A stretch of 64,000 nucleotides of DNA, from positions 330,863 to 394,862 of the forward strand of contig JBIKVZ010000001.1 of the NCBI GenBank assembly GCA_044356525.1, read 5' to 3'. Every line of letters begins with the position of its first letter. The first letter of the stretch is position 1. This DNA comes from Rickettsiales bacterium (GTDB taxonomy: Bacteria > Pseudomonadota > Alphaproteobacteria > Rickettsiales > RGZB01). Below the pieces are notes generated by a model. The model searched no databases, had not been told where the DNA came from, and was given only the letters and a program-made list of their open reading frames with translations. Made by a program: the position numbers and the translations under genes. Below are positions 5,499-50,489 of this stretch, piece by piece.

Positions 5499-5603
5499 TT
5501 TTTTATCTCTTTATGGGTGTGCCTTGTATGAAAGGGCTACACTTGTGCCGGAAAATAGGATATAAATAGCTTGGGCTAACCTGTTCAAAATACGGGCAAA
5601 GAC

Positions 5604-7979: not shown

Positions 7980-8080
7980 GCTTCCCACACGCTTTTTTGC
8001 TTGGCAGTGCCGCCCTAAACCGCTAAAAATAACCCATCCGCATTGACCCTCAACGACAAGTCCGCCACTCGAAGGATACG

Positions 8081-9805
8081 GTGATGAAAAAGCCTTTTGA
8101 TAAGTCCAAACTCCCCAGCCGTCACGTAACGGAAGGCCCAGAACGTGCGCCGCACCGCTCCTATTACTATGCGATGGGCATGACCGAAACGCAGATTCAT
8201 CAGCCGCTTGTGGGTGTCGTCACGACGTGGAACGAAGCGGCACCGTGCAACATTTCACTCGCCCGTCAGGCGCAAGTGGTTAAAAAAGGCGTGAGCGCCG
8301 CAGGTGGCACGCCGCGTGAATTCACCACCATCACCGTGACAGACGGTATCGCGATGGGGCATCAGGGCATGAAGTCATCCCTCGTGTCACGCGATGTGAT
8401 TGCTGACTCTGTTGAGCTTACCGTACGCGGCCATTGCTACGACGCGCTGGTCGGCCTTGCCGGATGCGATAAATCACTCCCCGGCCTGATGATGGCCATG
8501 GTACGCCTGAATATTCCATCTGTGTTTATCTATGGCGGCTCCATTTTACCCGGCCACTATAAAGGCAAAGACATCACCGTGCAGGACATGTTCGAGGCCG
8601 TCGGGCTTCACAGCACGGGCAAGCTCAGCGACGAAGAACTCCACGCCATGGAAGAAGTCGCTTGCCCATCCTCTGGTTCTTGTGGCGGCCAGTTCACAGC
8701 CAACACCATGGCCTGCGTATCTGAAGCGATTGGCTTAGCGCTCCCCGGTTCTGCGGGTGCCCCTGCGCCTTACGACACACGCGACCAGTTCGGCTTTGAT
8801 TCCGGCCTGCAGGTAATGGAGCTCTTAAAAAAGAAAATACGCCCGCGTGATATCGTTACAAAAAAATCGCTGGAAAATGCTGCCGCTGTTGTGGCCGCCA
8901 CAGGTGGTTCAACCAACGCCGCGCTGCATCTGCCTGCCATAGCGCACGAAGCGGGCATTAAGTTCAGCCTCGAAGATGTCGGCAGAATCTTCCACAAAAC
9001 CCCTTATATCGCCGACCTAAAACCAGGCGGCAAATATGTGGCAAAAGACCTGTATGAGGTCGGCGGCGTACAAGTTATTATGAAGGCGTTGCTGGATGGT
9101 GGCTTCCTGCACGGCGATGCTATTACCGTTAATGGAAAAACAATCGCTGAGAATTTGAAGGGCGTGAAGTTCCCAAAAAATCAGGACGTCGTGCGCCTCA
9201 CATCTGACCCCATCACCGCCACGGGCGGCGTGGTCACGCTAAAAGGCAATCTGGCACCAGAAGGCTGCATCGTGAAAGTGGCGGGCATGAAGAATCTGAA
9301 ATTCTCTGGCCCAGCGCGTTGTTTTGACCGCGAGGAAGATGCATTTGCTGCAGTCGATAAACGTAAATACAAAGAAGGTGAAGTGCTCGTCATCCGCTAT
9401 GAAGGTCCCAAAGGCGGCCCCGGCATGCGCGAAATGCTGGCCACCACCGCCGCCCTCTATGGGCAAGGCAAAGGCGACAGCGTTGCCCTTATCACCGACG
9501 GGCGCTTTTCCGGTGCCACACGCGGATTTTGCGTGGGTCACGTGGGGCCTGAGGCCGCGGCAGGCGGTCCTATCGCCCTCATTAAAGATGGCGATATCAT
9601 CACGCTGGATGCCATCAAAGGCACCATCAGTGTAAACCTCACTGAAAAAGAACTCGCTGAGCGCAAGAAAAAATGGAAGCCGCGTGCGACGGATTATCAG
9701 TCTGGCTCACTGTGGAAATATGCACAAGTGGTGGGCCCCGCCAAAGACGGTGCCGTTACCCACCCAGGTGGCGCAAAAGAAACCCATAGCTATGCGGATA
9801 TTTAA
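8081..9805 (+). CDS. ilvD: Dihydroxy-acid dehydratase
   Basis: 574-aa ORF with IlvD/Edd family motifs: [30 protein letters not shown]. Confidence 0.97.
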
Positions 9806-10467
9806 TGCAAGACTATCTTAAAACCATCGTTGCGGCGCTCTCTTTGCTCACGTTAATTGGCGCCTTATATCTCGGCTATGCGTACTGGCGTGACCGCACG
9901 GCTGTTTCTTCAGACCCGAATCTGGTGGAACTGGAGCGCTACGAAAAAGCAAAAGATTATCCCGGGCTGGCCAATGCACTTTTCCGCAAGCGTGAGGGCA
10001 CTGCGTTTAGCGAAGCCGTGCTGCCGTGGCTGGCAAAGCGTGAAGACTTAGGTTTCGCTCCGTACCTCTACGCGCAGGCGCTACATCTGAATGTGGTGCA
10101 AAAACCAGAAGAGGGCATCCGTTATTATTTCCGTGCCGGTCTTATTGCCCGCGTAGACCTTCTACGCTGTCTTGATGCCAGCGCAGAAACACTCATCATG
10201 CAGATGGAAGAATTATTCCCCGATGCGCTGGATTACCTCGATGAAAACCCAGGCACCCGCGTGGCGGCGGGCACGTTGGCGCTACTGAAAGAAGAGCAAG
10301 CCGTGCACCGCCCCAAGCCGGAATGGCTTTGCACGTATGGTGAAAAAAAGTTAAGCAAATATGCTGCATTCACTGAAGATGCGGCCTGGCAAGAAAAGCG
10401 CCTGCTGGCACTAGAAAACTTCCGTGTATTAATTTCAGAACGCCCTCAATACCCAGAAGGGCAATAA
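9805..10467 (+). CDS. Hypothetical membrane-anchored protein
   Basis: 220-aa ORF with one N-terminal TM helix (IVAALSLLTLIGALYLGYAYW). Its ATG overlaps the ilvD stop (TAATG). No recognisable domain. Confidence 0.6.
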   Translation: MQDYLKTIVAALSLLTLIGALYLGYAYWRDRTAVSSDPNLVELERYEKAKDYPGLANALFRKREGTAFSEAVLPWLAKREDLGFAPYLYAQALHLNVVQKPEEGIRYYFRAGLIARVDLLRCLDASAETLIMQMEELFPDALDYLDENPGTRVAAGTLALLKEEQAVHRPKPEWLCTYGEKKLSKYAAFTEDAAWQEKRLLALENFRVLISERPQYPEGQ

Positions 10468-10489
10468 CGTAACCGCTAGCCTTTGGGTG

Positions 10490-10517
10490 GCAGGTCTTCG
10501 CCCTGCTTCTCATTTTG
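10490..10517 (+). terminator. Weak candidate intrinsic terminator between convergent genes
   Basis: GCAGG-tcttcgc-CCTGC hairpin followed by the T-rich ttctcattttg. The stem is only 5-6 bp. Confidence 0.3.
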
Positions 10518-10592
10518 TATCCCCAAATAAGTACTCGCCAGCGTAAGTGTTGCACTGCGTATATTACCAAGCGCAACAAGTGAGTCGATGAC

Positions 10593-11255
10593 TTACTTAT
10601 TCGCCGCCATGTAGTCCAGAATTGCCACCTGAGTCGCGGCATGTTCTTCAAATGAGCGTTTTCTTTCTTCAAAAAGAGCGCCCATACCCGGTGTTACTTC
10701 ATCTGCCTTTGCAGCAGTAAGCCGATACATCTGCATGCCGGGTGATTGGTCAATCCGATTACTATATTGGTCCCATAATTTCATAAGTAGTTCTTCATCT
10801 TTGGCTTCAAGTGGCGGCACGGGCTCACCCTTAATTTCAGCCGTCATTTTATGATACATCGCAGTACTAAGCTGCTCGATATCAGCTAGCTCTGGTTTCA
10901 CTTTCTCCAGATAAGCTGAAAGCATTCCGCCTTTTTCATCAATCGCATTTGCAATACCCAGCAGCGCGCTTAAATATCCACCGATCGCCTCCACACGCTC
11001 CTCACCCAACACCATATCAATATGTTTTCCTGTGGGCCCTTCCTGCGCACCAGACCGATCGGATTCCATCTTGCGGCGCAGCTGTGCCACACTCACCATC
11101 ACATTGTCGAAAAACAACTGATCCCTTAACCCTTGAAGCATTGGGTGCTGCATCCGCCCATAGGCACTGGTCAACGTTTCGCCCATGCTGCGCACAAACA
11201 GATACAGATGCTCTTCCGGCGTGCCGCGGAGCGGTATTTCACCTTCGTTTGCCAT
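10593..11255 (-). CDS. Hypothetical soluble protein
   Basis: 220-aa ORF with normal amino-acid composition. The antisense ORFs look like junk. No recognisable motif. Confidence 0.6.
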   Translation of the reverse strand: MANEGEIPLRGTPEEHLYLFVRSMGETLTSAYGRMQHPMLQGLRDQLFFDNVMVSVAQLRRKMESDRSGAQEGPTGKHIDMVLGEERVEAIGGYLSALLGIANAIDEKGGMLSAYLEKVKPELADIEQLSTAMYHKMTAEIKGEPVPPLEAKDEELLMKLWDQYSNRIDQSPGMQMYRLTAAKADEVTPGMGALFEERKRSFEEHAATQVAILDYMAANK

Positions 11256-11330
11256 AGCGTCATTCTTAAAATTGTTGTAATCCTAGGTGCAGTATAGCAC
11301 AAAACCCCTTAATATTTGCTTAACGCAGAA

Positions 11331-12113
11331 ATGCCAAAATCCTTAAAAAACAATACGATAGATTCGGCTGAAGTGGCAAAATTTACCGCCATGGCCGATG
11401 AGTGGTGGGACGAAAACGGCAAATTCCGCCCGCTCCATTTGTTTAACCCCGTGCGCATCCGCTATATCCGCGACAGCATCACCGCACAATTTGGAAAAAA
11501 AACACAAGGGTCAAAGCCTTTAAGCGGCATCCGCATTCTGGATATTGGTTGCGGTGGTGGTTTGCTCGCCGAACCTTTGGCGCGATTGGGGGCAACCGTT
11601 ACTGGCGTGGATGCTTCAGAGAAAAACATTCGCGTTGCCACGCTGCACGCCAAAAAAAGCGGCGTAGCGATACAGTATAAACATGCTGCCGCAGAAGATT
11701 TGGTCCGCAAAAAACAGCAGTTCGATGTCGTGCTGGCAATGGAAATTGTTGAGCACGTGGCCGATGTAAATGCGTTTCTTTCCGCCTGCGCGGCGCTGGT
11801 AAAACCCGGCGGACTTTTGTTTGTTGCCACGCTGAACCGCACACCAAAATCATTCCTCTTTGGTATTGTTGGCGCTGAATATGTCATGCGCTGGCTACCG
11901 CGCGGCACACATGATTGGCGCAAATTCCTAAAGCCATCTGAAATCGCGGAGGCAATCACCCCCAAAGGATTTTCGGTAGAGGATATAAAAGGCGTAAGTT
12001 ACAGGCTTCTCACCGCAGATTTTTTACTGACGAACGACCCGAGCGTAAATTATTTACTGCGCGCCTCTAAAACGCCCAAGGCCTCAAGCCTGCGCCGAAC
12101 AAGCGGCACATAA
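11331..12113 (+). CDS. ubiG: Ubiquinone biosynthesis O-methyltransferase
   Basis: SAM-binding motif ILDIGCGGGLLAEPLARLG, UbiG-like WWDENGKFRPLH, and C-terminal VNYLL. The ORF opens at TTG 11316, but ATG 11331 is the more likely start. Confidence 0.9.
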   Translation: MPKSLKNNTIDSAEVAKFTAMADEWWDENGKFRPLHLFNPVRIRYIRDSITAQFGKKTQGSKPLSGIRILDIGCGGGLLAEPLARLGATVTGVDASEKNIRVATLHAKKSGVAIQYKHAAAEDLVRKKQQFDVVLAMEIVEHVADVNAFLSACAALVKPGGLLFVATLNRTPKSFLFGIVGAEYVMRWLPRGTHDWRKFLKPSEIAEAITPKGFSVEDIKGVSYRLLTADFLLTNDPSVNYLLRASKTPKASSLRRTSGT

Positions 12114-12436
12114 AATACATTCACAAACCAGCGATAAACCAACGCGAAAAGCTGCTTTTGAAAATGTGCCGCAAGCACGCGAGGCGCATAGCGCGCCAAT
12201 ATAAAAATAATCTTTGCTTTCGGGACTTTTATACTACCACCACGGCCTAAAACTAATAGCTTCCAAACCAGACGCCGTCTTGCGTACAGCGGCATACGGA
12301 TGCCTGTTTTTCTTTCCAGTGCAACCATCAGTCGTTGGGTCGATTTAACAATCTCTTGGTAATCTGACTCCTGCATCAGTTTCTTTGTGCCATCAATATA
12401 GTCGGGTATTTCACTCAAATGAACAGCGCCGCTCAT
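12050..12436 (-). CDS. Hypothetical protein, possibly the detached C-terminal part of the upstream GT2
   Basis: 128-aa ORF that overlaps the GT2 stop by 26 nt in another frame. Its 3' end overlaps the ubiG 3' end by 64 nt. See the finding on the A6 run. Confidence 0.35.
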   Translation of the reverse strand: MSGAVHLSEIPDYIDGTKKLMQESDYQEIVKSTQRLMVALERKTGIRMPLYARRRLVWKLLVLGRGGSIKVPKAKIIFILARYAPRVLAAHFQKQLFALVYRWFVNVFYVPLVRRRLEALGVLEARSK

Positions 12437-13145
12437 TTCTGATTCCGAAAGAATTTTTTGCTATTTTCTCTTTCACGATTCTTGCGGCACTTGCTTCTGA
12501 AATGGCGATGCTTGAATGATATTGGCTGTCGGAGCGCATACGATACACAATCCCTGGCCGCAGAAGTGACGCAGGCTTCGTGTGCTCAATAAGCTTTGAA
12601 ACCCAATCAAAGTCCTCCGCTTCACCATATTTAAAATCTTCTTGATAATAAATACCGTGCTGCTGAATCACATCATGCCGAATCATTAGCGTTGGGTTTG
12701 TAAAACACATCTGCAAAAGAAGGCTCACAGATAAATCTTTCACGCGATGAGGGCGATACCGAGACCGCAATACACCATCTCTCAATACAATCGACTGTAT
12801 GCCCAGAACACCCACACTCTTGTGCTTATCCAAATATCGTTTTTGTGCTGCCAGGCGCGTCGGAAGAGAAACATCATCTGCATCCATCAGTGCAATATAT
12901 TCACCTTTTGCTTCACGCAAGGCGGTGTTTCTGGCCGCGCCTGAGCCACGGTTTTTTTCATGATAAAAAACACGAATGCGGGAATCTTTAAATGAACGGA
13001 TAATATCGCGGGTGGTGTCCGTAGAGGCATCATCCACTATCAGCAGCTCAATGTCGGTAAGCGTCTGATCTAAGATGCTCTGAATCGCCGGTGCAATAAA
13101 TTCTGCCGCGTTATAAGCACACGTCACAACACTAACAGATGGCAT
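12411..13145 (-). CDS. Family-2 glycosyltransferase
   Basis: GT-A motifs VSVVTCAYNAAEFI, IVDDASTDTT and MDADDVS. The gene starts 21 nt after the atpC stop. Confidence 0.85.
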   Translation of the reverse strand: MPSVSVVTCAYNAAEFIAPAIQSILDQTLTDIELLIVDDASTDTTRDIIRSFKDSRIRVFYHEKNRGSGAARNTALREAKGEYIALMDADDVSLPTRLAAQKRYLDKHKSVGVLGIQSIVLRDGVLRSRYRPHRVKDLSVSLLLQMCFTNPTLMIRHDVIQQHGIYYQEDFKYGEAEDFDWVSKLIEHTKPASLLRPGIVYRMRSDSQYHSSIAISEASAARIVKEKIAKNSFGIRNERRCSFE

Positions 13146-13166
13146 AAGCCTACCTATGGAAACCTT

Positions 13167-13568
13167 TTAACGCAGGGCGGAAAGGAGCGCTTCCGCGATG
13201 TGGATGTTTTTCTCGGCCAGCTGACGGTCAAAATCATTCGCGGCTTTGGCAAGCGCCTTCTTGCCTTTTTCAAGGCGCTCTTCCGCATCCGAGCGCTTAG
13301 CAAGCTTCAGATCAACCGCTTCTTCCGCCAGTACGGTGCAACCCGTGGTGCTGACTTCGGTAAAGCCGCCGGAGACGAAAATGCGCTGCGTAATCTGCTC
13401 GCCATTTTCATACACATCCACCACGCCGCTCTGCATGGTTGCCACCATCGGCGCATGATTTTCCAGCACACCAAAGGTGCCGTCTGCACCGGGGATGACA
13501 ACCATCTTCACCGGCTTTGAAAACACCACCTGTGTGGGCGTTACTAAATCAAGCGTCAGCTTCGACAT
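13167..13568 (-). CDS. atpC: F1 ATP synthase epsilon subunit
   Basis: 133-aa ORF in the last position of the atpHAGDC operon, with a typical epsilon N-terminal beta-sandwich sequence (LDLVTPTQVVFSKPVKMVVIPG). Confidence 0.93.
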   Translation of the reverse strand: MSKLTLDLVTPTQVVFSKPVKMVVIPGADGTFGVLENHAPMVATMQSGVVDVYENGEQITQRIFVSGGFTEVSTTGCTVLAEEAVDLKLAKRSDAEERLEKGKKALAKAANDFDRQLAEKNIHIAEALLSALR

Positions 13569-13583
13569 GCGTGTACCTTATGG

Positions 13584-15119
<1,536 letters not shown>

Positions 15120-16016
15120 TTAAATTGCTTCCGCGCCGGAAATAATTTCAATCAGTTCCTTCGTAATCGTCGCCTGACGGTTACGGTTATATTCCAGCGT
15201 GAGTTTCTTAATCATTTCACCGGCATTGCGCGTGGCGTTATCCATCGCCGTCATGCGCGCACCCTGCTCGCTGGCAGAGCTTTCAAGCAGCGCGTGGAAA
15301 ATCTGCACGCTGATATTCAACGGCAATAAATCCGACAGCACGGCCGCTTCGCTCGGTTCATAATCATACACCGCTTCGGGGCCCTTCGTGGGGGCGGATT
15401 GGATTTTTTCCGACAGCGCGTTGATGTCGAGCGGAATCAGCTGCTGGAACGTCACTATCTGCGAAATGGCGGATTTGAATTTGTTATACACCACCGAGCA
15501 CACATCCACTTCGCCGCTTTCAAACAGCGAAAGCACCCTCGCACCCACTTGTGCGGCGTCAGTATATTCCACCTGCTTTTTACCGGCTTCGCCCATGCGG
15601 TCGATGATGGCGTTCTTGTAGCCATGCTTCAGCTGGTCGTAGGATTTTTTACCCACCAGCAGCAACTTCACTTCTTTGCCGGAAGCCTTCAGTTGCTCCA
15701 TGCGGTTGCGTACGGCGCGCACCACGCTGGTGTTGAAACCACCGCACAAACCGCGGTCGGATGAAATCACCACAATCAGATGCTTCTTATCGCTTGCGCG
15801 GCCCACCATCAGCGCGGGGGCATTTTCTTTTTCTTTAATCGACAGCGCCAAGGTTGCAATCACGCGCTCCATGCGTTCCGCATACGGGCGAGCCGACGCA
15901 GCACGTTCCTGCGCACGACGCAGTTTGCTGGCCGCCACCATTTTCATGGCTTTGGTGATCTTCTGCGTGGACTTCACGCTTTTGATCCTGAGGCGCAGTG
16001 TTTTTAAATTTGCCAC
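15120..16016 (-). CDS. atpG: F1 ATP synthase gamma subunit
   Basis: N-terminal LRLRIKSVKSTQKITKAMKMVAASKLRRAQ and C-terminal ITKELIEIISGAEA. Confidence 0.97.
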   Translation of the reverse strand: MANLKTLRLRIKSVKSTQKITKAMKMVAASKLRRAQERAASARPYAERMERVIATLALSIKEKENAPALMVGRASDKKHLIVVISSDRGLCGGFNTSVVRAVRNRMEQLKASGKEVKLLLVGKKSYDQLKHGYKNAIIDRMGEAGKKQVEYTDAAQVGARVLSLFESGEVDVCSVVYNKFKSAISQIVTFQQLIPLDINALSEKIQSAPTKGPEAVYDYEPSEAAVLSDLLPLNISVQIFHALLESSASEQGARMTAMDNATRNAGEMIKKLTLEYNRNRQATITKELIEIISGAEAI

Positions 16017-16054
16017 GGCTTAAACCTTTTCCTTCGCGCTACCAGTGTTTTCGT

Positions 16055-17584
16055 TTACGCAAACAGCTTGCTGAATTTTTCCAGCAGTGCTTTCAGTTTT
16101 TCTTCCGTTTTGTCCGACAGTTTCTGTTCGGTGCGGATTTCTTCCAGCAGCTTTACATTTTTGCCGCGCAGGTCTGCCAGCAGCTGTTCTTCAAAACGGC
16201 TGACGTCTTTTGCGGGCACCTTATCGAGGTAGCCTTTCACGCCGGCGTAAATCACGCAGACCTGTTCTTCCACCGCGAGCGGCGTATACTGGTTTTGCTT
16301 GAGGAGCTGCGTCAGGCGCGCACCGCGGCCGAGCAGTTTCTGCGTTGCGGCATCAAGGTCGGAACCAAACTGCGCGAACGCTTCCATTTCACGGAACTGA
16401 GCGAGTTCGAGCTTAATCGAACCAGCCACTTGTTTCATGCCTTTAATCTGTGCGGCAGAACCCACGCGGGATACGGAAAGACCGACGTTCACCGCCGGGC
16501 GGATACCTTTGTAGAACAATTCCGTTTCAAGGAAGATCTGACCGTCGGTAATCGAAATCACGTTGGTCGGGATGTAGGCCGATACGTCACCAGCCTGCGT
16601 TTCAATCACCGGCAGTGCGGTGAGCGAACCAGCGCCCTGTTCGTCGGACATTTTTGCAGCGCGCTCCAGCAAGCGTGAGTGCACATAGAACACGTCACCT
16701 GGGTATGCTTCGCGGCCTGGTGGGCGGCGCAGCAGCAGGGACATCTGGCGGTATGCCACAGCGTGCTTGGAAAGATCGTCATACGCAATCAGGGCATGCA
16801 TGCCGTTATCGCGGAAGAATTCACCCATCACGCAGCCCGTGTAGGGTGCCAGGAACTGCATCGGAGCAGGTTCAGAAGCAGAAGCCGCTACCACGATGGA
16901 GTATTCCATCGCACCTTGCTCTTCCAGTTTTTTCACCAGCTGGGCGATGGTCGAGCGCTTCTGACCAATGGCCACATAAATGCAGTACAGTTTTTTGGAT
17001 TCGTCTTTACCGCTGTTCACCGCCTTCTGGTTCAAGAATGCGTCAAGAATCACGGCGGTTTTACCCGTCTGACGGTCACCGATGATCAGTTCGCGCTGGC
17101 CGCGACCGATTGGAATCAGCGCGTCGATCGCTTTAATCCCCGTCTGCACTGGCTCATGCACCGACTTACGAGCAATAATGCCAGGAGCTTTCACTTCAAG
17201 GCGGGTTTGCTTCACGTTTTTCAAAGGGCCTTTACCGTCAATCGGGTTACCGAGACCATCCACCACGCGACCGAGCAGACCTTTACCTGCTGGCACGCTC
17301 ACGATTTCGCCCGTACGTTTTACCGTGTCACCTTCTTTAATATCGCGGTCGTTACCGAACAACACGATACCCACATTGTCTTCTTCAAGGTTCAGCGCCA
17401 TACCTTTAATGCCGCCGGGGAATTCCACCATTTCACCCGCCTGCACTTTATCGAGGCCGTATACGGTTGCGATACCGTCACCCACGGAAATAACTTGGCC
17501 AACTTCTTTGAGTTCGGCTTCACCAGAAAAATCGGTGATCTGTTTTTTCAAAACGCTAGCAATTTCAGAGGCGCGAATGTCCAT
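16055..17584 (-). CDS. atpA: F1 ATP synthase alpha subunit
   Basis: Walker [10 protein letters not shown], with typical alpha-subunit sequence throughout. Confidence 0.98.
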
Positions 17585-42085: not shown

Positions 42086-42910
42086 ATGAAAAACGCAAAA
42101 CCCATACAAACGCCGCAATTTGCTTCCAGCCATGTCTGGCAGCATCGCCGCCTGATTTTTACGCTGGCAAAGCGTGAAGTTTCCGCGCGTTTCCGTGGCT
42201 CTATCTTAGGCGTATTTTGGGCGCTGCTGCTGCCACTCACCATGCTGGCGATCTACAGCCTCGTGTTCGGGGTTATTTTCAAGGCGCGCTGGGGCGTAGA
42301 AACCGGCGCAAAAGGCGAGTTTGCGATTATTTTATTCACCGGCCTTTTGCTGCACGCGCTGCTGGCTGATTTAATCACCCGCAGCCCACTCCTCATGGTG
42401 CATAACGCCAATTTTGTGAAAAAAGTGGTGTTCCCGCTCGAAATCCTGCCCGTGGTGGCGCTGCTTTCCGGCCTGTTTCAGTTCTGTGTGGGGTTTGCCG
42501 TGCTGCTGGTCGGCGCGGTTTTGGTCTATGGCACGCTGCCGCTCACACTGCTTTTTGCGCCACTTATCGTATGGCCGTTTGCCTGTATTGTGCTGGGCGG
42601 GTGTTGGTTTTTGGCGGCTGTCGGCGTGTACTTCCGCGACATCGCGCAGGTGATGGGCGTGGCCGCCACGCTGCTACTGTTTTTCAGTACGGTATTTTAT
42701 CCCGCCGAACACTTGCCTGCCGCGCTTCAGCCGCTGATTTACCTAAACCCCATCTCGTTTGCGGCAGACCAGTTGCGCCTTGTCACACTGCAGGGTGCGT
42801 GGCCGGATTGGAATGGTTTGGCGCTCTATTACGCGGCGGCGTTTTTCGCGCTGGCTTTTGGGTTTGCCGTGTTCCAGCGTGCGCGGAAAGGATTTGCCGA
42901 TGTCCTCTGA
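42086..42910 (+). CDS. wzm: ABC-2 type polysaccharide exporter permease (Wzm/KpsM/TagG-like)
   Basis: 274-aa ORF with 6 TM helices and an N-terminal KREVSARFRGSILGVFWALL motif typical of ABC-2 glycan exporters. Confidence 0.85.
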   Translation: MKNAKPIQTPQFASSHVWQHRRLIFTLAKREVSARFRGSILGVFWALLLPLTMLAIYSLVFGVIFKARWGVETGAKGEFAIILFTGLLLHALLADLITRSPLLMVHNANFVKKVVFPLEILPVVALLSGLFQFCVGFAVLLVGAVLVYGTLPLTLLFAPLIVWPFACIVLGGCWFLAAVGVYFRDIAQVMGVAATLLLFFSTVFYPAEHLPAALQPLIYLNPISFAADQLRLVTLQGAWPDWNGLALYYAAAFFALAFGFAVFQRARKGFADVL

Positions 42911-44198
42911 TACCGCAATTCGCATCAAAAACCTGTCCAAAACCTACCGGCTCTATGCCCGCCCGCGTGACCGCTTGATTGAACTCGTCACGGGCCGCCA
43001 GTGTTTTGTACCGTTTGCGGCGCTGAACAATGTGTCACTCGATATTAAAAAAGGCGAAACGCTGGGGCTTGTAGGGCATAATGGCTCGGGAAAATCCACC
43101 CTGCTGCAGCTGATTTGCGGCACGCTCACCCACACCAGCGGGCAAATTGAAACACACGGGCGCATCTCCGCGCTCTTAGAGCTTGGCGCAGGTTTTAATC
43201 CCGAATTCACTGGCCATGAAAATATCTTTTTAAACGCTGCGATTTTGGGGCTTACGGACGCTGAAACACGCGAGAAATATGATGCAATCGTTGCCTTTTC
43301 CGGCATTGCTGCGCATCTGCACCAACCGGTAAAAACCTATTCCAGCGGCATGTATGTGCGTTTGGCTTTCGCCATCGCGATTGCCAGCGAGCCGGATATT
43401 CTGATTGTCGACGAAGCACTTTCCGTGGGTGACATTGCGTTTCAGCGCAAATGCTTCTCGCGCATCCGCGAATTGCAGGCCAAAGGCGCCACCGTAGTGT
43501 TTGTGTCGCATTCGGTGAATACGATTTTAGAATTGTGCGACCGCGCGGTGCTGCTCGACCACGGCGAAAAGCTAATAGAAGGTGCGCCTGCTGCTGTGAT
43601 GGCGCAATATCACCGGCTGATGTTCGCGCCGGAAAAAGCGCTGCCTGCCGTGCGGGCGGAAATCCGCGCTGGCCTTGCACAAAACTCTGCCGCGCCATCC
43701 AAACAATCACTCGCCGCGCATTTCGACCCCTCGCTAACGCCCGAAAGCACTGTGTATTATGAGCCAAACGGCGCGGAAATCAGCAACATCTGCATCACTG
43801 ACGCGAAGGGCAATTCGGTAAACCTCTTAAAGCGCGGCAAAACCTATCATTACCGCTACGATGTGCGTTTTACAGAAGCGGCGAAATCCGTTCGTTTCGG
43901 CATGAATATCAAAACAAATACCGGCATGGTGCTGGGCGGCGCCTCCACCCACACGGAAAAAAAGCCGATGGCGGCGATTAAAAAGGGCAAAAAAATCAGC
44001 GTGGATTTCAGCTTCACCTGCCGCTTGTTGCCCGGCGTATACTTTACCAACGCAGGCTGCACCGCAGTGAAAGAGGCTGAGCGCGTGAATCTGCACCGCG
44101 TGCTGGATGCCTGCCTTTTCCGCGTGCTACCCGAGGCAGAAGAAACCGCCACCGGCAAGGTGGATTTTGGCATTACCTCAACCGTGAAAGGCGTGTAA
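42900..44198 (+). CDS. wzt: Polysaccharide ABC exporter ATPase with a C-terminal cargo-binding extension (Wzt/TagH-like)
   Basis: Start taken at ATG 42900 (MSSDTAIRIKNL), which overlaps the wzm stop. Walker A GHNGSGKST, signature YSSGMYVRLAF, Walker B ILIVDEALSVGD. A beta-rich extension of about 180 aa follows the NBD. Confidence 0.88.
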   Translation: MSSDTAIRIKNLSKTYRLYARPRDRLIELVTGRQCFVPFAALNNVSLDIKKGETLGLVGHNGSGKSTLLQLICGTLTHTSGQIETHGRISALLELGAGFNPEFTGHENIFLNAAILGLTDAETREKYDAIVAFSGIAAHLHQPVKTYSSGMYVRLAFAIAIASEPDILIVDEALSVGDIAFQRKCFSRIRELQAKGATVVFVSHSVNTILELCDRAVLLDHGEKLIEGAPAAVMAQYHRLMFAPEKALPAVRAEIRAGLAQNSAAPSKQSLAAHFDPSLTPESTVYYEPNGAEISNICITDAKGNSVNLLKRGKTYHYRYDVRFTEAAKSVRFGMNIKTNTGMVLGGASTHTEKKPMAAIKKGKKISVDFSFTCRLLPGVYFTNAGCTAVKEAERVNLHRVLDACLFRVLPEAEETATGKVDFGITSTVKGV

Positions 44199-44208
44199 AT
44201 CACTTCCC

Positions 44209-44937
44209 ATGCTTCAGTTTTTAGGAATCGGCGCACAAAAAAGCGGCACCACATGGCTTTACGAGAATTTAGCCAAACATCCGCAGGTTTACTTCCCTGG
44301 CGGCAAAGAAGTGCATTTCTTTGACATGTTCTTCACGCGCGGGCTCGATTGGTATCTCTCGCAATTCCCCGATAATACCGATAAAATCAACGGCGAAATC
44401 ACACCTGCTTACGCCATTTTGGAAGAGGCAAAAATCCGCCTGATTCACGACATTAACCCTGAGCTGCGCCTATTTTATATTCTGCGCGACCCACGCGAAC
44501 GCGCATGGAGCGCTGCCAAAATGGAAATGGGTCGCGCCGGAAAAACCTACGGGCAAACCAGCGACGAGTGGTTTATCGACCAGTTTTATTCCGACGCGTC
44601 GCTAAAACGCGGGGATTACCGCACCTGCCTGATGAACTGGCAGAGCGTGTTCCCCAAAGGCCAATTGCTGCTGCTGAAATTCACCGACATCCGCAACAAT
44701 CCGCACGCCCTCATGCAAAAGCTCGCCAAGCATATCGGCATTGATGCGGGTTTTTATGCAGCAGACCGCGCAGAAATCATCACGGGGAAGGTCTTTGCCA
44801 ACCCTGAAGAAATCATCCGCCCCTCTTTAAAGCGCGCGCTACATAAGCTTTATGCGCCGCAGATTGAAGAAATCAACCTCTTCCTCGGCTCTGCGTGGTT
44901 CGATGAGGAAGACCCCGCCTGGGCTTCTTCGCTATGA
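44209..44937 (+). CDS. Sulfotransferase (PAPS-dependent, Sulfotransfer_1/3-like)
   Basis: 5'-PSB loop GAQKSGTTWL and 3'-PB region ILRDPRERAWS. Confidence 0.85.
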   Translation: MLQFLGIGAQKSGTTWLYENLAKHPQVYFPGGKEVHFFDMFFTRGLDWYLSQFPDNTDKINGEITPAYAILEEAKIRLIHDINPELRLFYILRDPRERAWSAAKMEMGRAGKTYGQTSDEWFIDQFYSDASLKRGDYRTCLMNWQSVFPKGQLLLLKFTDIRNNPHALMQKLAKHIGIDAGFYAADRAEIITGKVFANPEEIIRPSLKRALHKLYAPQIEEINLFLGSAWFDEEDPAWASSL

Positions 44938-45683
44938 CGCCGCTTTACTTCCTGCATATTGCCAAAACGGCGGGCACGTCGCTGATTCATTTTCTGGATG
45001 GGCAATTTCCCAAAAACCAGATTGCGCCCTTTTCGCTCACACATGAACTGGCCGCGGCATTGAAGAAGGATGCGGGCTGCCTTGAAAAATATGCGTTGTT
45101 GCACGGGCATTTAGGCTATTCACCCGTCATGATGATGAAAAAAAAACCGCACATCATCACCCTGCTGCGTGAGCCGGTGGCACGCACTTTATCGCATTAC
45201 CGCCATATTTTGCGCCACAAGGACCACTGGCTATTTGCCGATTTGCCGAAAAAAAGCCTTTCGCTGGAAGAATTCCTCGATTACCCGCCCGCACAAAGGC
45301 TTTTCACCAATTTCCAAACGCGCAACCTCGCGCAGGATTTTGACTTCACCAAGCCCATCGCCGAAGCAACCGGAAAAGCACTTCAGCCCAATCTTGGCAG
45401 GCTTTTATCGTTTGTGCGCCCCGCACTTTCAGAAGATAATCTCTTAAACGTGGCCACAGAACGCCTTGTCGCCATGGAGCTTGTGGGCACCACAGAAACA
45501 TTCGACACATTCGTCACCACGCTCTGCAAGCGACGCGGCTGGGTCGCGCCTGCGGCACCACTGCGGCACAACACCGCACCCGAAGAAAGCCTCGACAGAC
45601 TTGCTCCCGCCACGCGGAAAAAAATTGAGGCCTTGACCGCACTGGATAGAGTACTGTACCGTGCCGCCGTTGACGGGGCATAA
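44934..45683 (+). CDS. Sulfotransferase (family-2-like)
   Basis: FLHIAKTAGTSL PAPS-binding loop and LLREPVARTLSHY. It overlaps the previous gene by 4 nt. Confidence 0.8.
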   Translation: MTPLYFLHIAKTAGTSLIHFLDGQFPKNQIAPFSLTHELAAALKKDAGCLEKYALLHGHLGYSPVMMMKKKPHIITLLREPVARTLSHYRHILRHKDHWLFADLPKKSLSLEEFLDYPPAQRLFTNFQTRNLAQDFDFTKPIAEATGKALQPNLGRLLSFVRPALSEDNLLNVATERLVAMELVGTTETFDTFVTTLCKRRGWVAPAAPLRHNTAPEESLDRLAPATRKKIEALTALDRVLYRAAVDGA

Positions 45684-45941: not shown

Positions 45942-48530
45942 ATGGCTACTTTTAATTTTTCATCTGTTGTTGGCACTTCCGTTGCCTTCGTAACGGGCGA
46001 TGTTCTTAACTTCAACATCGCAAATAACAATCTTGTGCTACCTACGCAGGTTGATGTGTCTGATACGACGGGCGGCGTTCTGGTCGCAACGAATCTTGGT
46101 AACGTGATTCTCACGGGCGTAACACTCGCTCAACTATTCAGCGATAACTTCACCTTCAATGGCCAGGTTGACACGAACGGTCAGATCCTCATCGGTGACG
46201 AAACAAGCAACTCCTCCCTCGATGCCATTGGTAACACGCTCACAGCTTCTGCTGGTGCACGAATCTATGGCCTCGGGGGCGCAGATAACATCACTGGCTC
46301 TGGTGGCGTTGACAAAATCTCCGGTGGCGAGGGTGGTGACACTGTTGCCGCTGCTGCGGGCAACGACGATATCGCTGGCAATAGAGGCAACGATAGCCTC
46401 AACGGTGGCGTTGGTAACGACAACATCCGCGGCGGTCAGGACAATGACACGCTTAATGGCGGCGGCGGTGTTGACTCTATGGACGGCGACCTCGGTAACG
46501 ACAGCCTCGTTTCTACCGATGGTGTGGATAATGCCGTCGCAGACTCTGCGGTTGCATCGGGTGGTGCTGGTAACGACGTGATTGACCTTTCTGCTCTGAA
46601 TGACACGATTGACGGCTCAACCGTAAATGGTGAAGCTGGTACCGACACCCTCACGGGTACGGCTGGTGTCGATATTCTGAATGGTGGTGCTGATAATGAC
46701 ACCATCACGGGTGGCACGGGCGCTAACAATATCAATGGTAACCTCGGCAATGACGTCATCACCGGTGGTGCTGACGCTGCTGAAACGATTCGCGGTGGCG
46801 CGGGTAATGACACCATTTCTACCGGCGGTTCTTCGCTTGGTGGCGATGTCGTACACGGCGATCTGGGTGACGACAACATCACGATTCAGGATGCTGGTAC
46901 GGACCTCGGTGCAACGGTGACCGGTGGAACTGGTGCTGACACCATTACAGCTGCCGCTCTCGACGTTGGTGAGGCAGCAAATATCAACGGCAATCAAGGC
47001 CTGGATGTGATTACGGGCGGTCTTGGTAATGATATCCTCCGTGGTGGTGCTGACAATGACACCGTAACGGGTGGCACGGGCGCCGATACGCTGAATGGTA
47101 ACGAAGGTGACGACTCTGTCGTGAGCGGGGCTGGTACGCTTGGTGCAACGATTGACGGTGGTGAAGGTAACGACACGCTGGCTGGTGGTGCATCTACGAC
47201 TGCAACGGGCGACAACAGCATCGTAGGTGGTGCGGGCAATGACGTTATCACGAACGCTTCCACGGCTGGTACGAGCACGATTAACGGTGGCGATGGCGAT
47301 GATTCAGCTGTGCAGACCGGTGCTGGCGCAGCAGTCATCGAGGGTGGTGCTGGTAACGACACACTCACGGGCGGTGCGGGTGCTGATACGCTGACCGGCG
47401 GTATAGGCGACGATACGCTTAGTGGCCTGAACGGTGGCGACATCATCACTGCTGGCGACGGTGCAGACAGCATCTTGTCTGGTACGGGTGCAGACACCAT
47501 CGTATCTGATGCTGGTAACGACACCATCTCCCTCTCCACAGGCAACGACAACGTTGATGCTGGTGCAGGTGATGACAGAATCAGCTTTGCTGATGCTAGC
47601 TTTACCCTTGCCGACTCGCTGGCTGGCGGTGCTGGGACCGACACGATCGTATTTACCGATGCTGCGACAGCCCTCACGGGTCGCCTCGTTTCCACGGTAA
47701 GTGTTGAGGTGGTTGACTTGACCGCCTCAAACGGTGTTCTGGGTGTTATTGCTGCTGACTTCGTAGCAGCTTCCGACACGGCTGACACCGATGGTTCTGG
47801 TAGCTCCGTCCTGTTATCTGCTGGCACACGTACCCTCTCTATGGATACGTCTGGTGTGGCTGCAGGTAACACGGTGGTTGTAAGCACAACGGGTGCAGTG
47901 ACCCTATCTGCCAACGCAGATCGCATCCGTTTGGCGGATGGTGTGAACGCTAACGTTACGGCTGGTACTGGTAGCGACACGGTTGAAGGCGGCACGGGTG
48001 CCGATACCATAACCGGCGGTGCAGGCGACAACTTACTTACTGGTGGCGCAGGCAATGACAGCTTGGTAGCTGCTGGCGGTCTTGACACGCTCACGGGTGG
48101 TGCAGGTGCGGATACGTTCCAGTTTACTGTCGTGTCCACGCTAGCGGGTGCCCCGACCTTCACTGACCTATCTGTAATCACTGACTTCAACGCTGGAGCA
48201 GGTGATGTGATTAGGACGACTGGTCTGGTTGGTGCGGCAGAACTGACGGCAGGTGGTGCAACAGTCGTTGCTTCCGGCTTGGCCTCCACGGCCCTGACGG
48301 ACACAGGGATTAACAACCTGTTTAACAGTGTGTCGGGAACCCTGACCTCCTACCGCTTCGATGCAGGCGCTAACAACGCTGACGTTGTTTTCTTCAGCAC
48401 GACGGACAACAAGACATTCCTTATTATTGACTTGGCCGATAACGGTACCTTCACTGTTGCTGACCAAATTTTGGAAGTCACGGGCTTAAACCTCACGGGC
48501 TTTGCCGTTGCTACGGACATTATTGCTTAA
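45942..48530 (+). CDS. RTX (hemolysin-type Ca-binding repeat) protein, candidate T1SS substrate / S-layer-like protein
   Basis: 862 aa with dozens of GGxGxDxUx nonapeptides. No Cys and no N-terminal signal peptide. The C-terminal ITDF...D...I module is typical of T1SS targets. AAGAGG lies 7 nt before the ATG. Confidence 0.9.
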   Translation: MATFNFSSVVGTSVAFVTGDVLNFNIANNNLVLPTQVDVSDTTGGVLVATNLGNVILTGVTLAQLFSDNFTFNGQVDTNGQILIGDETSNSSLDAIGNTLTASAGARIYGLGGADNITGSGGVDKISGGEGGDTVAAAAGNDDIAGNRGNDSLNGGVGNDNIRGGQDNDTLNGGGGVDSMDGDLGNDSLVSTDGVDNAVADSAVASGGAGNDVIDLSALNDTIDGSTVNGEAGTDTLTGTAGVDILNGGADNDTITGGTGANNINGNLGNDVITGGADAAETIRGGAGNDTISTGGSSLGGDVVHGDLGDDNITIQDAGTDLGATVTGGTGADTITAAALDVGEAANINGNQGLDVITGGLGNDILRGGADNDTVTGGTGADTLNGNEGDDSVVSGAGTLGATIDGGEGNDTLAGGASTTATGDNSIVGGAGNDVITNASTAGTSTINGGDGDDSAVQTGAGAAVIEGGAGNDTLTGGAGADTLTGGIGDDTLSGLNGGDIITAGDGADSILSGTGADTIVSDAGNDTISLSTGNDNVDAGAGDDRISFADASFTLADSLAGGAGTDTIVFTDAATALTGRLVSTVSVEVVDLTASNGVLGVIAADFVAASDTADTDGSGSSVLLSAGTRTLSMDTSGVAAGNTVVVSTTGAVTLSANADRIRLADGVNANVTAGTGSDTVEGGTGADTITGGAGDNLLTGGAGNDSLVAAGGLDTLTGGAGADTFQFTVVSTLAGAPTFTDLSVITDFNAGAGDVIRTTGLVGAAELTAGGATVVASGLASTALTDTGINNLFNSVSGTLTSYRFDAGANNADVVFFSTTDNKTFLIIDLADNGTFTVADQILEVTGLNLTGFAVATDIIA
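46266..47577 (+). repeat. Main RTX nonapeptide repeat block (27-bp periodicity) of RTX1, with a second short block near 47960-48125
   Basis: Runs such as GGADNITGSGGVDKISGGEGGDTV... read directly from the translation. Confidence 0.9.
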
Positions 48531-48556: not shown

Positions 48557-48589
48557 GGGGCGCTCCTTAACGGGGCGCCCTTTTTCTTT
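48557..48589 (+). terminator. Strong rho-independent terminator after RTX1
   Basis: GGGCGCTCC-ttaac-GGGGCGCCC hairpin (9 bp, one G-U pair), immediately followed by TTTTTCTTT. Confidence 0.85.
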
Positions 48590-48653: not shown

Positions 48654-50489
48654 ATGACCAGTTTCGTTTTTAGCAATCTTCAGGGTGATAGCACCGCTTT
48701 CGATTTTTCCACCGACAGCATCATTTTCAGTTCTGCTGATGGCACCGCCTCTGCGTTTAATCTGGCTGAAGTCACCACTGGCAGCACCACCGCAGTGCAA
48801 GTAACCCGCATTGCCGACGAGCCCGCGATTGGTAGCGGCTCGCTTAACCTTATCGCCACCCTCACCGGTGTGCGTTTGGCGCAGCTTACGGCCAGCAACT
48901 TCCTTTTCTTTGCCTCCAGCGCCATTATCGGCGATAACACCACCAACGCCCCCACCGAAGGTGAGGTGATTGGTACATTCGACGCCGCCGCGCAAAATAT
49001 TACCGGCACCTCGGCAGATGACCTGATTCTAGGCCTTGGTGGTGACGATGAGATTGACGGCAGCGGGGGCGATGACTTTATCAACGGCAATGCAGGCGAT
49101 GATTTGCTCACCGGTGGTGATGGCGATGATACCGTGCGCGGCGGCCAAGGCAATGACACGCTCTCGCTCGGCAGCGGCAGTAACGATGCGAACGGTAACC
49201 GTGGCAACGACGTTGTCACTGGTAGCAGTAGTGCAGATTTACTGCGCGGCGGGCAAGATAACGACACGCTCATAGGCGGTGGTGGCGCAGATACGCTGCG
49301 CGGCAATCTGGGCGATGACAGCCTTTCCTTAAACCCTGGCGTGGGCCAGACTGGTGTGGCAGACGGCAATGATGGCAATGATACCATCACCGCTGCTTCT
49401 GCCGTGGCGGGCGCTACCGTGCTGCTAAATGGCAATGACGGCAACGACAGCATCATCGGCGGGGCCTCCGCAGACTCCTTACGCGGCGGGCAAGGCGCTG
49501 ATATTTTGGTCGGCGGGCTTGGTAACGACACGCTGCTCGGAGACTTTGATAATGACACGCTCCGCGGTGCGGAGGGTGACGATATTTTGCGCGGCGGCTC
49601 CGGTGATGACACAATTATCGGAAACACCGGCAACGATCAGCTTTTTGGCGGCACCGGAAACGACGTTTTCATTGTTGATTACGTGGAAAATGACACAGAA
49701 AATAATTCTGTAACCGGCGGGTCGGGGATCGATACACTCGACCTCAACACATCGCTCGTAGGCACCACCATCCTGAACCTTGCCAACATTACGGGCGTGG
49801 ATGTGTTAGAAATGCCGGATGGCTTTATCACTCTCACCAACACCTTCCTGCAAGGCACTGATTTTGGCGCCGTTACCGTGCGCGTTAATTCTGACTCCAC
49901 CACGGGCAACATCACGCTCAACACCGCTTCCGTCAGCAGTACGTATGCCATTACGGTCGCCGTGAGCAACTCTACTGAAACCATTACTCTTGCGGCAGGC
50001 AACAACAAGGTCCTGCTCGATGGCGGCGTAACGATTACAGGCAATAGCGGGAACGACACCATCATTGGCGATGAAAACGCCGACACCATCACTTCTGGTG
50101 CCGGGCGCGATTCTCTCACGGGTGGTGCAGGCGGAGATACATTCATCATCGGCGCCACAGACTCCAATGCCACCAACGGCATCGACATCATTACTGATTT
50201 CAGTCGCACGGAAGACAGTATCGATGTGCCGTTTGACCCCAGCGCTGGCTTAAATGCTGCGCCCGTGGGCGGTGCGGCAAGTTCCTTTGCTGAGGTAGAA
50301 GCGCTTATCACCGCCGTGCTCAATGACCTTGGTGACTTGCAGATTATCAATATCACTAGCGGTACGTTGTCCGGCCAAAAATTTGCCGTCATTGAGGCAA
50401 ATGACGTAGACGGCTACCAGTCTGGGGCGGATTATCTCATTCAGTTCTCAAACGTATCGGATGCGTTTTTCTCTGCCACGTTAATCTAA
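48654..50489 (+). CDS. RTX (hemolysin-type Ca-binding repeat) protein, paralogue of RTX1
   Basis: 611 aa with GGxGxDxUx repeats, no Cys and no signal peptide. The N-terminal module resembles RTX1 (FxFS...AF...LTGVxLAQL...NFxF...IGDxTxN). C-terminal IITDFSRTEDSIDV module. Confidence 0.9.
   Translation: MTSFVFSNLQGDSTAFDFSTDSIIFSSADGTASAFNLAEVTTGSTTAVQVTRIADEPAIGSGSLNLIATLTGVRLAQLTASNFLFFASSAIIGDNTTNAPTEGEVIGTFDAAAQNITGTSADDLILGLGGDDEIDGSGGDDFINGNAGDDLLTGGDGDDTVRGGQGNDTLSLGSGSNDANGNRGNDVVTGSSSADLLRGGQDNDTLIGGGGADTLRGNLGDDSLSLNPGVGQTGVADGNDGNDTITAASAVAGATVLLNGNDGNDSIIGGASADSLRGGQGADILVGGLGNDTLLGDFDNDTLRGAEGDDILRGGSGDDTIIGNTGNDQLFGGTGNDVFIVDYVENDTENNSVTGGSGIDTLDLNTSLVGTTILNLANITGVDVLEMPDGFITLTNTFLQGTDFGAVTVRVNSDSTTGNITLNTASVSSTYAITVAVSNSTETITLAAGNNKVLLDGGVTITGNSGNDTIIGDENADTITSGAGRDSLTGGAGGDTFIIGATDSNATNGIDIITDFSRTEDSIDVPFDPSAGLNAAPVGGAASSFAEVEALITAVLNDLGDLQIINITSGTLSGQKFAVIEANDVDGYQSGADYLIQFSNVSDAFFSATLI
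49038..49674 (+). repeat. Main RTX nonapeptide repeat block of RTX2, with a second short block near 50040-50150
   Basis: GLGGDDEIDGSGGDDFINGNAGDDLLTGGDGDDTVRGGQGNDTL..., read from the translation. Confidence 0.9.

Follow-up and report, generated by a model that had tools for sequence, protein, structure and literature searches.

A cassette of four consecutive genes, encoding a predicted Wzm/Wzt glycan exporter and two different predicted sulfotransferases, is found within a 64,000-nucleotide stretch of a Rickettsiales bacterium genome (assembly GCA_044356525.1, contig JBIKVZ010000001.1, positions 330,863 to 394,862; hereafter the window). Judged from their sequences, wzm, wzt and the two sulfotransferase genes, here named ST1 and ST2, form one operon that has an even chance of being the export and modification module of an ATP-binding cassette (ABC) transporter-dependent surface glycan, sulfated and with a terminal sulfate that is read by Wzt. 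The components of this reading are not equally firm: a sulfated glycan is probably the cargo, and that a terminal sulfate is itself the recognised cap is a tentative suggestion, placed at an even chance or a little below. The gene identities, the operon structure, the purifying selection and the recurrent adjacency of wzt and sulfotransferase genes are the demonstrated part.

The first-pass annotation of this DNA had suggested, with due caution, that a sulfate could terminate the chain or tag it for recognition, or that sulfate is present on the exported glycan in some other way, and it placed the glycosyltransferase genes outside the cluster. This suggestion gains support from the Wzt_C domain of Wzt, the two predicted sulfotransferases, the adjacency of wzt and sulfotransferase domains in six of the eight loci that were retrieved through Wzt similarity, the fusion of such domains to a coiled coil and polymerising glycosyltransferases in relatives, the genes for synthesis of 3'-phosphoadenosine-5'-phosphosulfate (PAPS) in relatives and the Arg in the predicted binding pocket.

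Organisation and conservation of the cassette

All four genes are on the plus strand. The first, wzm (42086..42910), encodes a 274-aa ABC-2 type permease, and its TGA stop codon at 42908-42910 lies beyond the ATG of wzt at 42900, giving an 11-nt overlap; this start of wzt is consistent with the 432-aa gene calls in three other assemblies. The 432-aa product of wzt (42900..44198) is comprised of an ATPase, or nucleotide-binding, domain (about residues 1-247; 42900..43640) and a C-terminal carbohydrate-binding domain of the Wzt_C type (residues 289-422; 43764..44198, to the stop). Exactly 10 nt separate the stop of wzt from the start of ST1 (44209..44937; 242 aa), and ST1 and ST2 (44934..45683; 249 aa) overlap by 4 nt (ATGA). 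The overlap of wzm with wzt, and the pair of mutually overlapping sulfotransferase genes 10 nt past wzt, are thus as the first-pass annotation had described them.

The wzm product matches ABC2_membrane (PF01061, E=1.3e-22); its best NCBIfam matches are Wzm/RfbD and KpsM, both far under their cut-offs. Within Wzt the ATPase is matched by ABC_tran at residues 42-174 (E=9e-25), and the closest solved relative of this domain is Wzt of Aquifex aeolicus (8dku, E=1.3e-72). Permease and cognate ATPase, adjacent and translationally coupled, are by homology an ABC-2 glycan exporter. A Kps-type capsule module was also considered and was rejected, the KpsM model giving 27 bits against a cut-off of 300 and the window holding no kpsE/D/S/C-like genes.

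The loci used for comparison are given below by L numbers. All four genes, in the same order and followed by RTX genes, are present in L008, with 93-96% protein identity to the window, and in L004, with 49-63% protein identity. The ratio of nonsynonymous to synonymous substitution rates (dN/dS) against L008 is 0.04 for wzm, 0.05 for wzt, 0.05 for ST1 and 0.11 for ST2 (dS about 0.4-0.5), which is judged to be as low as or lower than that of the comparison genes ileS (0.17) and phoR (0.045); against L004 the cassette gives 0.11-0.22. All four genes are under purifying selection. Since the four-gene order recurs in other assemblies (49-96% protein identity) with dN/dS of 0.04-0.11, the arrangement is judged from these comparisons not to be a product of chance. 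In L169, labelled 'Hyphomicrobiales bacterium' at NCBI, a single protein of 499 aa combines both sulfotransferases, ST2 preceding ST1, and the two enzymes are therefore tied to one pathway.

The Wzt carbohydrate-binding domain

The region of Wzt past the ATPase domain extends over some 185 aa, close to the beta-rich extension of about 180 aa that had been reported from the sequence alone. Its residues 289-422 match Wzt_C (PF14524) with E=5.6e-32 and 111.1 bits against a cut-off of 30.4, covering profile positions 7-142 of 143. In an AlphaFold model built with 61 homologs, with a mean predicted local distance difference test (pLDDT) score of 87, the C-terminal domain is all-beta and its pLDDT is mostly 87-97; hidden Markov model search and predicted fold thus both bear out the earlier description of the tail. 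The full-length model aligns with full-length Aquifex Wzt over ~425 columns, with a Foldseek E of about 1e-41 and 34% identity. A profile of the C-terminal domain matches the solved domains of Aquifex (6o14/8dky, E about 6e-21), Escherichia coli O9a (2r5o, 2.5e-17) and Raoultella/Klebsiella O12 (5hno, 1e-10). On the strength of the predicted structure the tail is a bona fide Wzt_C domain, a beta-sandwich related to the solved Wzt binding domains. That it might fail to fold as a carbohydrate-binding beta-sandwich is not borne out, given the all-beta model, the Aquifex alignment and the profile matches to three solved domains.

In Aquifex Wzt the 3-O-methyl cap lies in a pocket of Leu300, Thr346, Ala348 and Trp362, of which Trp362 is the lid, and the change W362L abolishes lipopolysaccharide binding (PMC9445017). 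These four residues map to N336, N384, G386 and R400 of the window Wzt in three independent alignments, one made with a single sequence, one with a 61-sequence profile and one with a domain profile. Across 61 relatives no substitution is seen at N384, G386 or R400. A word-indexed search with the Wzt tail alone had returned a single match and was replaced by a full-length search together with an exhaustive search of representatives. Using the binding domain, the exhaustive search gave 462 clusters at E<=1e-10, and in its best 150 representatives the R400 position is Arg in 147 and Lys in 2. Taken together these would be a putative sulfate-reading Wzt clade, at least 150 clusters at 50% identity, in which Arg replaces the methyl-stacking Trp.

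The set of loci compared here holds 17 distinct binding domains whose wzt is immediately followed by a sulfotransferase gene, and in 15 of them the R400 position is Arg, or Lys in the Nitrospirota group; the domain of L175, an E. coli plasmid locus, is Arg-type, and its sulfotransferase domain was detected by Pfam only. No sulfotransferase is found near the Trp-type domains (n=3: Aquifex, a Rhodospirillum rubrum plasmid and an Azospirillum plasmid). The methyl-phosphate-binding domain of O9a (2r5o) has Arg at the position equivalent to R400, where it may take part in reading the anionic cap.

Two predicted sulfotransferases

Both of the distinct PAPS-binding signatures pointed out earlier in the genes after wzt are present. 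In ST1 they are GAQKSGTTWL and RDPRERAWS. ST1 matches Sulfotransfer_1 with E=3.3e-15 (56.6 bits against a cut-off of 22) and Sulfotransfer_3 with E=1.3e-15, and its best solved relative is heparan sulfate 3-O-sulfotransferase 1 (3uan, E=2.7e-19). In the alignment with 3uan, GAQKSGTTW, GEITPAY and RDPRERAWS stand over IGVRKGGT, VEKTPAY and RDPSERVLS, which correspond to the 5'-phosphosulfate-binding motif, the E-x-T-P-A-Y stretch of the catalytic-base region and the 3'-phosphate-binding motif.

The motifs of ST2 are FLHIAKTAGTSL and REPVARTLSHY. None of its Pfam matches is above cut-off, the best being Gal-3-O_sulfotr at E=0.012, with Sulfotransfer_2 (PF03567) reaching 12.3 bits where 22 are required, and there is no NCBIfam match above threshold. 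Only 70 cluster relatives are detectable in a large protein collection, several of them with PF03567 or PF06990. A 40-sequence family profile matches heparan sulfate 6-O-sulfotransferase (5t03) with E=8.5e-26 and heparan sulfate 2-O-sulfotransferase with E=4e-8. The AlphaFold model of ST2 has a pLDDT of 93.2 and its top Foldseek matches are again these two enzymes (5t03 and 4ndz), both with probability 1.0, and within the family the motifs FxHxxKTxGT and RxP...S are invariant. It is through the family profile and the predicted fold that ST2 is assigned as a sulfotransferase.

The earlier claim of two different sulfotransferases is accordingly upheld, for ST1 by Pfam and by the alignment with 3uan, and for ST2 by profile and fold with scores under the Pfam cut-offs. 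By predicted activity ST1 and ST2 are carbohydrate-type PAPS sulfotransferases of different families, ST1 being heparan-sulfate 3-O-sulfotransferase-like and ST2 heparan-sulfate 6-O/2-O-sulfotransferase-like and related to Sulfotransfer_2.

Sulfotransferase genes beside wzt in other genomes

A sample drawn without regard to sulfotransferases is given by the eight loci fetched by Wzt similarity alone (L169-L174, L178 and L179). In six of these (L169, L171, L172, L173, L174 and L179) the gene directly after wzt has a sulfotransferase domain. In L174 this is an ST1 ortholog, and the next genes encode an epimerase and a glycosyltransferase of family 2 (GT2). L171 (Stutzerimonas stutzeri), L172 (Pseudomonas citronellolis-like), L173 (Rhizobium sp. 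R693) and L179 (Pseudomonas yamanorum) have in common a third, Sulfotransfer_3-like type of domain (GMHRSGTS...KDPR). This third type is above the Pfam cut-off in L172 (34 bits against 27), and its profile gives 43 matches in the PDB, all of them named sulfotransferases or close relatives, the off-name entries being retinol dehydratase, one 'polyketide synthase' deposit and two uncharacterised proteins.

Further loci were fetched through ST2 or ST1 homologs and are biased towards sulfotransferases. About 20 of 79 ST2-family genome loci have a Wzt-like ATPase within 10 kb, among them loci of Nitrospirota, a cyanobacterium, Marinicella and Nitrosopumilus. ST1 orthologs lie directly after wzt in L004, L008, L174, L095, L100 and L101, and in the last three the Wzt binding domain is closely related to that of the window. 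The local ST1, ST2 and third-type (ST3) profiles missed the Sulfotransfer_2 domain of a giant protein on an E. coli plasmid that was found by Pfam, and because of this a 'none' from these profiles is not proof of absence.

The genes with the third domain type, all directly after wzt in rhamnan-type O-antigen clusters, are located at 11371-16389 in L171, 11358-12581 in L172, 11338-15642 in L173 and 11335-15270 in L179. The products in L171, L173 and L179 are proteins of 1,300-1,700 aa that begin with the sulfotransferase domain and continue with WbsX, RgpF, GT1 or GT2 domains; in L179 this N-terminal domain was omitted by the gene caller through a late start. In L172 a stand-alone protein of 407 aa consists of sulfotransferase and coiled coil. 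The E. coli case, L175, is plasmid pKTa005_1 (NZ_CP147085.1) of the river-water strain KTa005, where a 1,787-aa protein encoded at 8536-13899, directly after wzm-wzt and rmlBDAC, comprises Sulfotransfer_2 (E=1.1e-22, residues 24-252), a coiled coil, WbsX, GT2 and GT1 and is annotated only as 'glycosyltransferase'. The locus was found in 1 of 5,426 complete E. coli genomes. A coiled-coil-like segment between sulfotransferase and glycosyltransferase domains is seen in both L171 and L175. The characterised terminators WbdD and WbbB are built in this manner, from a modifying domain and a coiled coil, alone or fused to a polymerase (PMC3482155, PMC9445017, PMC11231755).

PAPS-synthesis genes accompany several of these clusters. 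In L173 a cysD-like gene and a cysN/cysC fusion are directly upstream of GT2-rmlBDAC-wzm-wzt; in L179 cysNC and cysD are 5 kb downstream of the cluster; and in L172 an adenosine-5'-phosphosulfate kinase gene is in or beside the cluster. According to studies of sulfated capsules, sulfotransferase and PAPS genes found together are a hallmark of sulfated polysaccharide synthesis (PMC11641403, PMC11766843).

Two of the loci are of additional interest. In the marine Nitrospirota-type contigs L006/L007, positions 3851-16610 hold seven sulfotransferase genes of three families around wzm-wzt, together with genes for a 928-aa secreted-looking protein and a GSDH-like protein; by its gene content this looks like a heavily sulfated glycan cluster. 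L170 holds at 10001-11293 an orphan wzt, without adjacent wzm, whose binding domain is 65% identical to that of the window; it overlaps a diaminopimelate/ornithine decarboxylase gene, and exbB/exbD follow.

Comparison with described systems

The caps described to date are methyl, methyl-phosphate and Kdo (3-deoxy-D-manno-octulosonic acid) only (PMC9445017). The cassette resembles the E. coli O9a/O8 system (Wzm, Wzt, WbdD) in the order of wzm-wzt and then a modifying enzyme, in the Wzt_C domain on Wzt and in the Arg that the window Wzt has in common with 2r5o, the reader of an anionic methyl-phosphate cap. It differs in having two predicted PAPS sulfotransferases rather than a kinase/methyltransferase, in the lack of a coiled-coil ruler on these enzymes and in the lack of mannosyltransferases or other polymerases in the cluster. 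WzmWzt of A. aeolicus (7k2t, 8dku, 6o14), which handles a 3-O-methyl-mannose/rhamnose cap (PMC9445017), is, for Wzt as a whole, the nearest relative with a solved structure and has a homologous binding domain; however, its pocket residues Leu300/Thr346/Ala348/Trp362 are replaced by N/N/G/R in the window, and Aquifex has no adjacent sulfotransferase. The terminator-polymerases of the WbbB type (Klebsiella O12, Raoultella; beta-Kdo cap) are paralleled by the genes after wzt in L171, L173, L175 and L179, which encode an N-terminal modifying domain with glycosyltransferases downstream, but the N-terminal domain in these relatives is a sulfotransferase and not a Kdo transferase, and the sulfotransferases of the window are free-standing only.

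In Aeromonas salmonicida an unexplained open reading frame with a sulfotransferase domain is present directly after wzt, in a wzt-ORF-wbbB cluster, and its authors note that the published O-antigen structure contains no sulfate (PMC4483657). That sulfated polysaccharides are exported by ABC transporters is established for Kps-type capsules and rhizobial K-antigens (PMC11766843, PMC11641403, PMC11625862). The sulfated capsules of Cobetia marina KMM 1449 and Vibrio sp. KMM 8419 resemble the proposed system in cytoplasmic, PAPS-dependent sulfation and ABC-transporter export (PMC11766843, PMC11641403), and in the clustering of sulfotransferase and PAPS genes with transporter genes, as in L173 and L179. 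The rhizobial KpsS/LpsS systems likewise sulfate a polysaccharide in the cytoplasm that is ABC-exported (PMC11625862, citing Townsend and Keating 2008). Unlike the window, with its Wzm/Wzt, binding domain and absence of kps genes, the Kps-type systems use KpsMT, KpsE/D and KpsS/C, have no Wzt_C and carry in-chain sulfate.

Cyanobacterial clusters for sulfated exopolysaccharides, such as xss for synechan, also have PF00685, PF03567 and PF13469 sulfotransferase genes inside export clusters (PMC8205485), and a cyanobacterial genome is among those in which members of the ST2 family are neighbours of Wzt-like genes, along with Nitrospirota, Marinicella and Nitrosopumilus genomes. Synechan, in contrast, depends on Wzx/Wzy; 'ABC-type' clusters with sulfotransferases are listed in that study and not analysed, and neither a Wzt binding domain nor a cap role is proposed (PMC8205485). 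No description of a sulfate cap or of a sulfotransferase-type terminator was found in open-access papers and preprints. From gene content, the window appears to be a minimal member, without glycosyltransferases, of a widespread uncharacterised class.

Proposed pathway and alternative explanations

In the pathway proposed here, glycosyltransferases with genes elsewhere would build a polyprenol-linked (undecaprenyl) polysaccharide at the inner membrane's cytoplasmic face. ST1 (3-O-like) and ST2 (6-O/2-O-like) would then sulfate it with PAPS in the cytoplasm, as suggested by their family membership and by the gene fusion. At least one sulfate on the non-reducing terminal residue would act as the cap recognised by the C-terminal domain of Wzt, in whose pocket Arg takes the place of the Aquifex Trp, and the capped chain would be translocated through the Wzm/Wzt channel, as expected by homology.

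A number of observations weigh against this pathway, or against its terminal step. As the first-pass annotation had remarked, no polymerising glycosyltransferases are in the cluster: none are within 29 kb of the cassette, and the nearest GT2 genes, at least 29 kb away and the sole ones of the window, are at 922-1887 and 12411-13145. PAPS-synthesis genes (cysDN/cysC) are likewise absent from the 64 kb. ST1 and ST2, at 242 and 249 aa, are single-domain proteins without the coiled-coil ruler of WbdD/WbbB-type terminators. Two of the eight loci fetched by Wzt similarity, L170 (orphan wzt) and L178 (wzm-wzt and then an RTX protein), have an Arg-type domain and no adjacent sulfotransferase, and L031 and L035, where the neighbouring genes are ST2-like, have Ser at the R400 position. 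The comparison of Arg and Trp relies on remote alignments (domain E=4.8e-5 to 1e-20), and the Arg might be structural rather than ligand-contacting, because Asp is always found at +3. In the clusters of L171, L172 and L173, which belong to the Wzt clade of the window, methyltransferases often co-occur, and for this reason the cap read by the clade could be a methyl or mixed group. In the metagenomic loci L095, L100, L103, L139 and L141 an ST1 ortholog is present alongside a separate sulfotransferase-coiled-coil-polymerase, and ST1 may be an in-chain modifier there rather than a capping enzyme.

Several of these points suit an account in which sulfation is in-chain only and the Wzt domain reads something else at the chain end, for instance a methyl group or a special sugar set by an enzyme encoded elsewhere, so that sulfation would not license export. 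The known ABC-exported sulfated polysaccharides, the Cobetia and Vibrio capsules, carry their sulfate in-chain (PMC11766843, PMC11641403); the Nitrospirota loci with up to seven sulfotransferases beside wzm-wzt fit heavy in-chain sulfation; and two different sulfotransferases exceed the needs of a single cap. The methyltransferases of related clusters, the presence of ST1 beside a separate terminator-like sulfotransferase in several loci and the missing coiled coil of ST1 and ST2 lean the same way. What this account does not anticipate is a sulfotransferase domain exactly at the terminator position, after wzt and before coiled coil and polymerase, as in the Pseudomonas, Rhizobium and E. coli plasmid clusters, or the exchange of the Trp of the Aquifex methyl-binding pocket for an invariant Arg; nor is there a methyltransferase near the cassette of the window. 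In-chain sulfation alone is, on this evidence, the strongest of the alternatives, though rather less likely than not.

The sulfotransferases could also act on a substrate that is not Wzm/Wzt cargo, such as a lipo-oligosaccharide, a small metabolite or tyrosines of the RTX proteins, their adjacency being due to co-regulation or chance. RaxST is an example of a bacterial peptide sulfotransferase. The cluster has no glycosyltransferases, in this lineage RTX proteins come after the cassette in every case, L178 has wzm-wzt-RTX without a sulfotransferase, and a bacterial Nod-factor sulfotransferase, NodH, exists (PMC11625862). RaxST-like tyrosine sulfation of the RTX proteins was, however, judged unlikely because ST1 and ST2 match carbohydrate and not tyrosine sulfotransferases, their nearest relatives being enzymes of a polysaccharide (heparan sulfate) rather than tyrosine or small-molecule enzymes. 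The genes are, moreover, translationally coupled with wzt, and the adjacency of wzt and sulfotransferase recurs across phyla and in classical O-antigen clusters without RTX genes, which leaves a substrate of this kind highly unlikely.

Finally, the lack of glycosyltransferases, of sugar-nucleotide genes and of a coiled-coil terminator in the cluster, amid housekeeping surroundings, is what would be expected if a larger O-antigen cluster had lost its glycosyltransferases and left behind a remnant that is in decay or silent and has no current function. Such decay is hardly credible because dN/dS is low (0.04-0.11 against L008 and 0.11-0.22 against L004); no fewer than four divergent lineages keep all four reading frames intact, no variation is seen in the catalytic motifs, and in L169 a productive in-frame ST2-ST1 fusion is found.

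RTX proteins and the surrounding region

The cassette is flanked upstream by ileS and mscL and downstream by two RTX genes, phoR, pstCAB and phoB. The remainder of the window is comprised of housekeeping genes and includes a separate F1 ATP-synthase operon and cobS/cobT, which together with the NCBI label of the syntenic L169 suggest an uncultured alphaproteobacterium as the source. Rfam and tRNA scans of the window gave no matches. A promoter and terminator scan left its transcription units unresolved, with one clear result, a strong terminator-like hairpin at 48557-48581 between the two RTX genes.

RTX1 (45942..48530, plus strand) encodes an acidic calcium-binding repeat protein of 862 aa (HemolysinCabind E=4e-65) and RTX2 (48654..50489, plus strand) one of 611 aa (HemolysinCabind E=7e-53) with the same type of N-terminal domain. 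Both proteins are Cys-free and very acidic, and the conserved N-terminal domain of ~100 aa that they have in common reads M[AT][TS]FxFS...LTGV.LAQL..SNF.F...IGD.T.N. RTX proteins with this domain are also encoded at 11059-16291 in L004, 13043-15556 in L169 and 10044-12902 in L178. Orthologs of RTX1 follow the cassette in L004, L008 and L169, and in L178 the protein with the RTX1-type N-terminal domain comes directly after wzm-wzt in a different genomic context without sulfotransferases. No RTX secretion genes (ABC transporter, membrane fusion protein or outer membrane factor) are among the annotated reading frames of the window.

Given their position, RTX1 and RTX2 are possible partners of the cassette. 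Their recurrence is a hint that this Wzm/Wzt clade and the RTX surface proteins may be functionally linked, perhaps by glycan anchoring. Surface-layer proteins bound to O-antigen are known, for example RsaA and SapA. That the sulfated glycan would in like manner be a cell-surface anchor for the acidic RTX proteins is quite unlikely and is offered as an analogy. Another co-location of Wzm/Wzt with an RTX protein is seen on the R. rubrum ATCC 11170 plasmid NC_007641.1 (L176), where positions 5214-12746 hold a SapC-family gene, wzm and a Trp-type wzt beside genes for an RTX/serralysin-C-terminal protein and a protein with a methyltransferase-regulatory domain.

Two further regions of the window may be mentioned. 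On the minus strand at 35110-37441 there is a bufferin-like set of the ribosomally synthesised and post-translationally modified peptide type, comprising DoxX, HvfC/DUF2063, MbnB/DUF692 and a DUF2282 (BufA1) precursor, which is syntenic with ileS in L004, L008 and L169. On the plus strand at 5604-7979 a 791-aa protein with ankyrin repeats is encoded. Ankyrin-repeat proteins are unusual in free-living bacteria and are often tied to host association.

Implications

Cap-dependent export through Wzm/Wzt is a textbook quality-control step of O-antigen biogenesis, and sulfated bacterial polysaccharides are considered rare, with poorly known enzymes (PMC8205485, PMC11625862). It is conceivable, at somewhat less than an even chance, that O-antigen caps include a fourth class besides methyl, methyl-phosphate and Kdo, namely a terminal sulfate ester set by sulfotransferases at the terminator position and read by the Arg-pocket Wzt clade. 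Sulfotransferase domains at that position would be free-standing in the alphaproteobacterial cassette and fused to coiled coil and polymerase in Pseudomonas/Stutzerimonas, Rhizobium and the E. coli plasmid. Cultured carriers of the fuller system, namely S. stutzeri (GCA_000982865.1), P. yamanorum (CP058644), Rhizobium sp. R693 and E. coli KTa005 with pKTa005_1, make the hypothesis directly testable. If it is true, a ligand could be predicted for a large Wzt clade and a defined role given to uncharacterised polysaccharide sulfotransferases, and many environmental and plant-associated bacteria would depend on their supply of PAPS for the control of chain length and the licensing of export.

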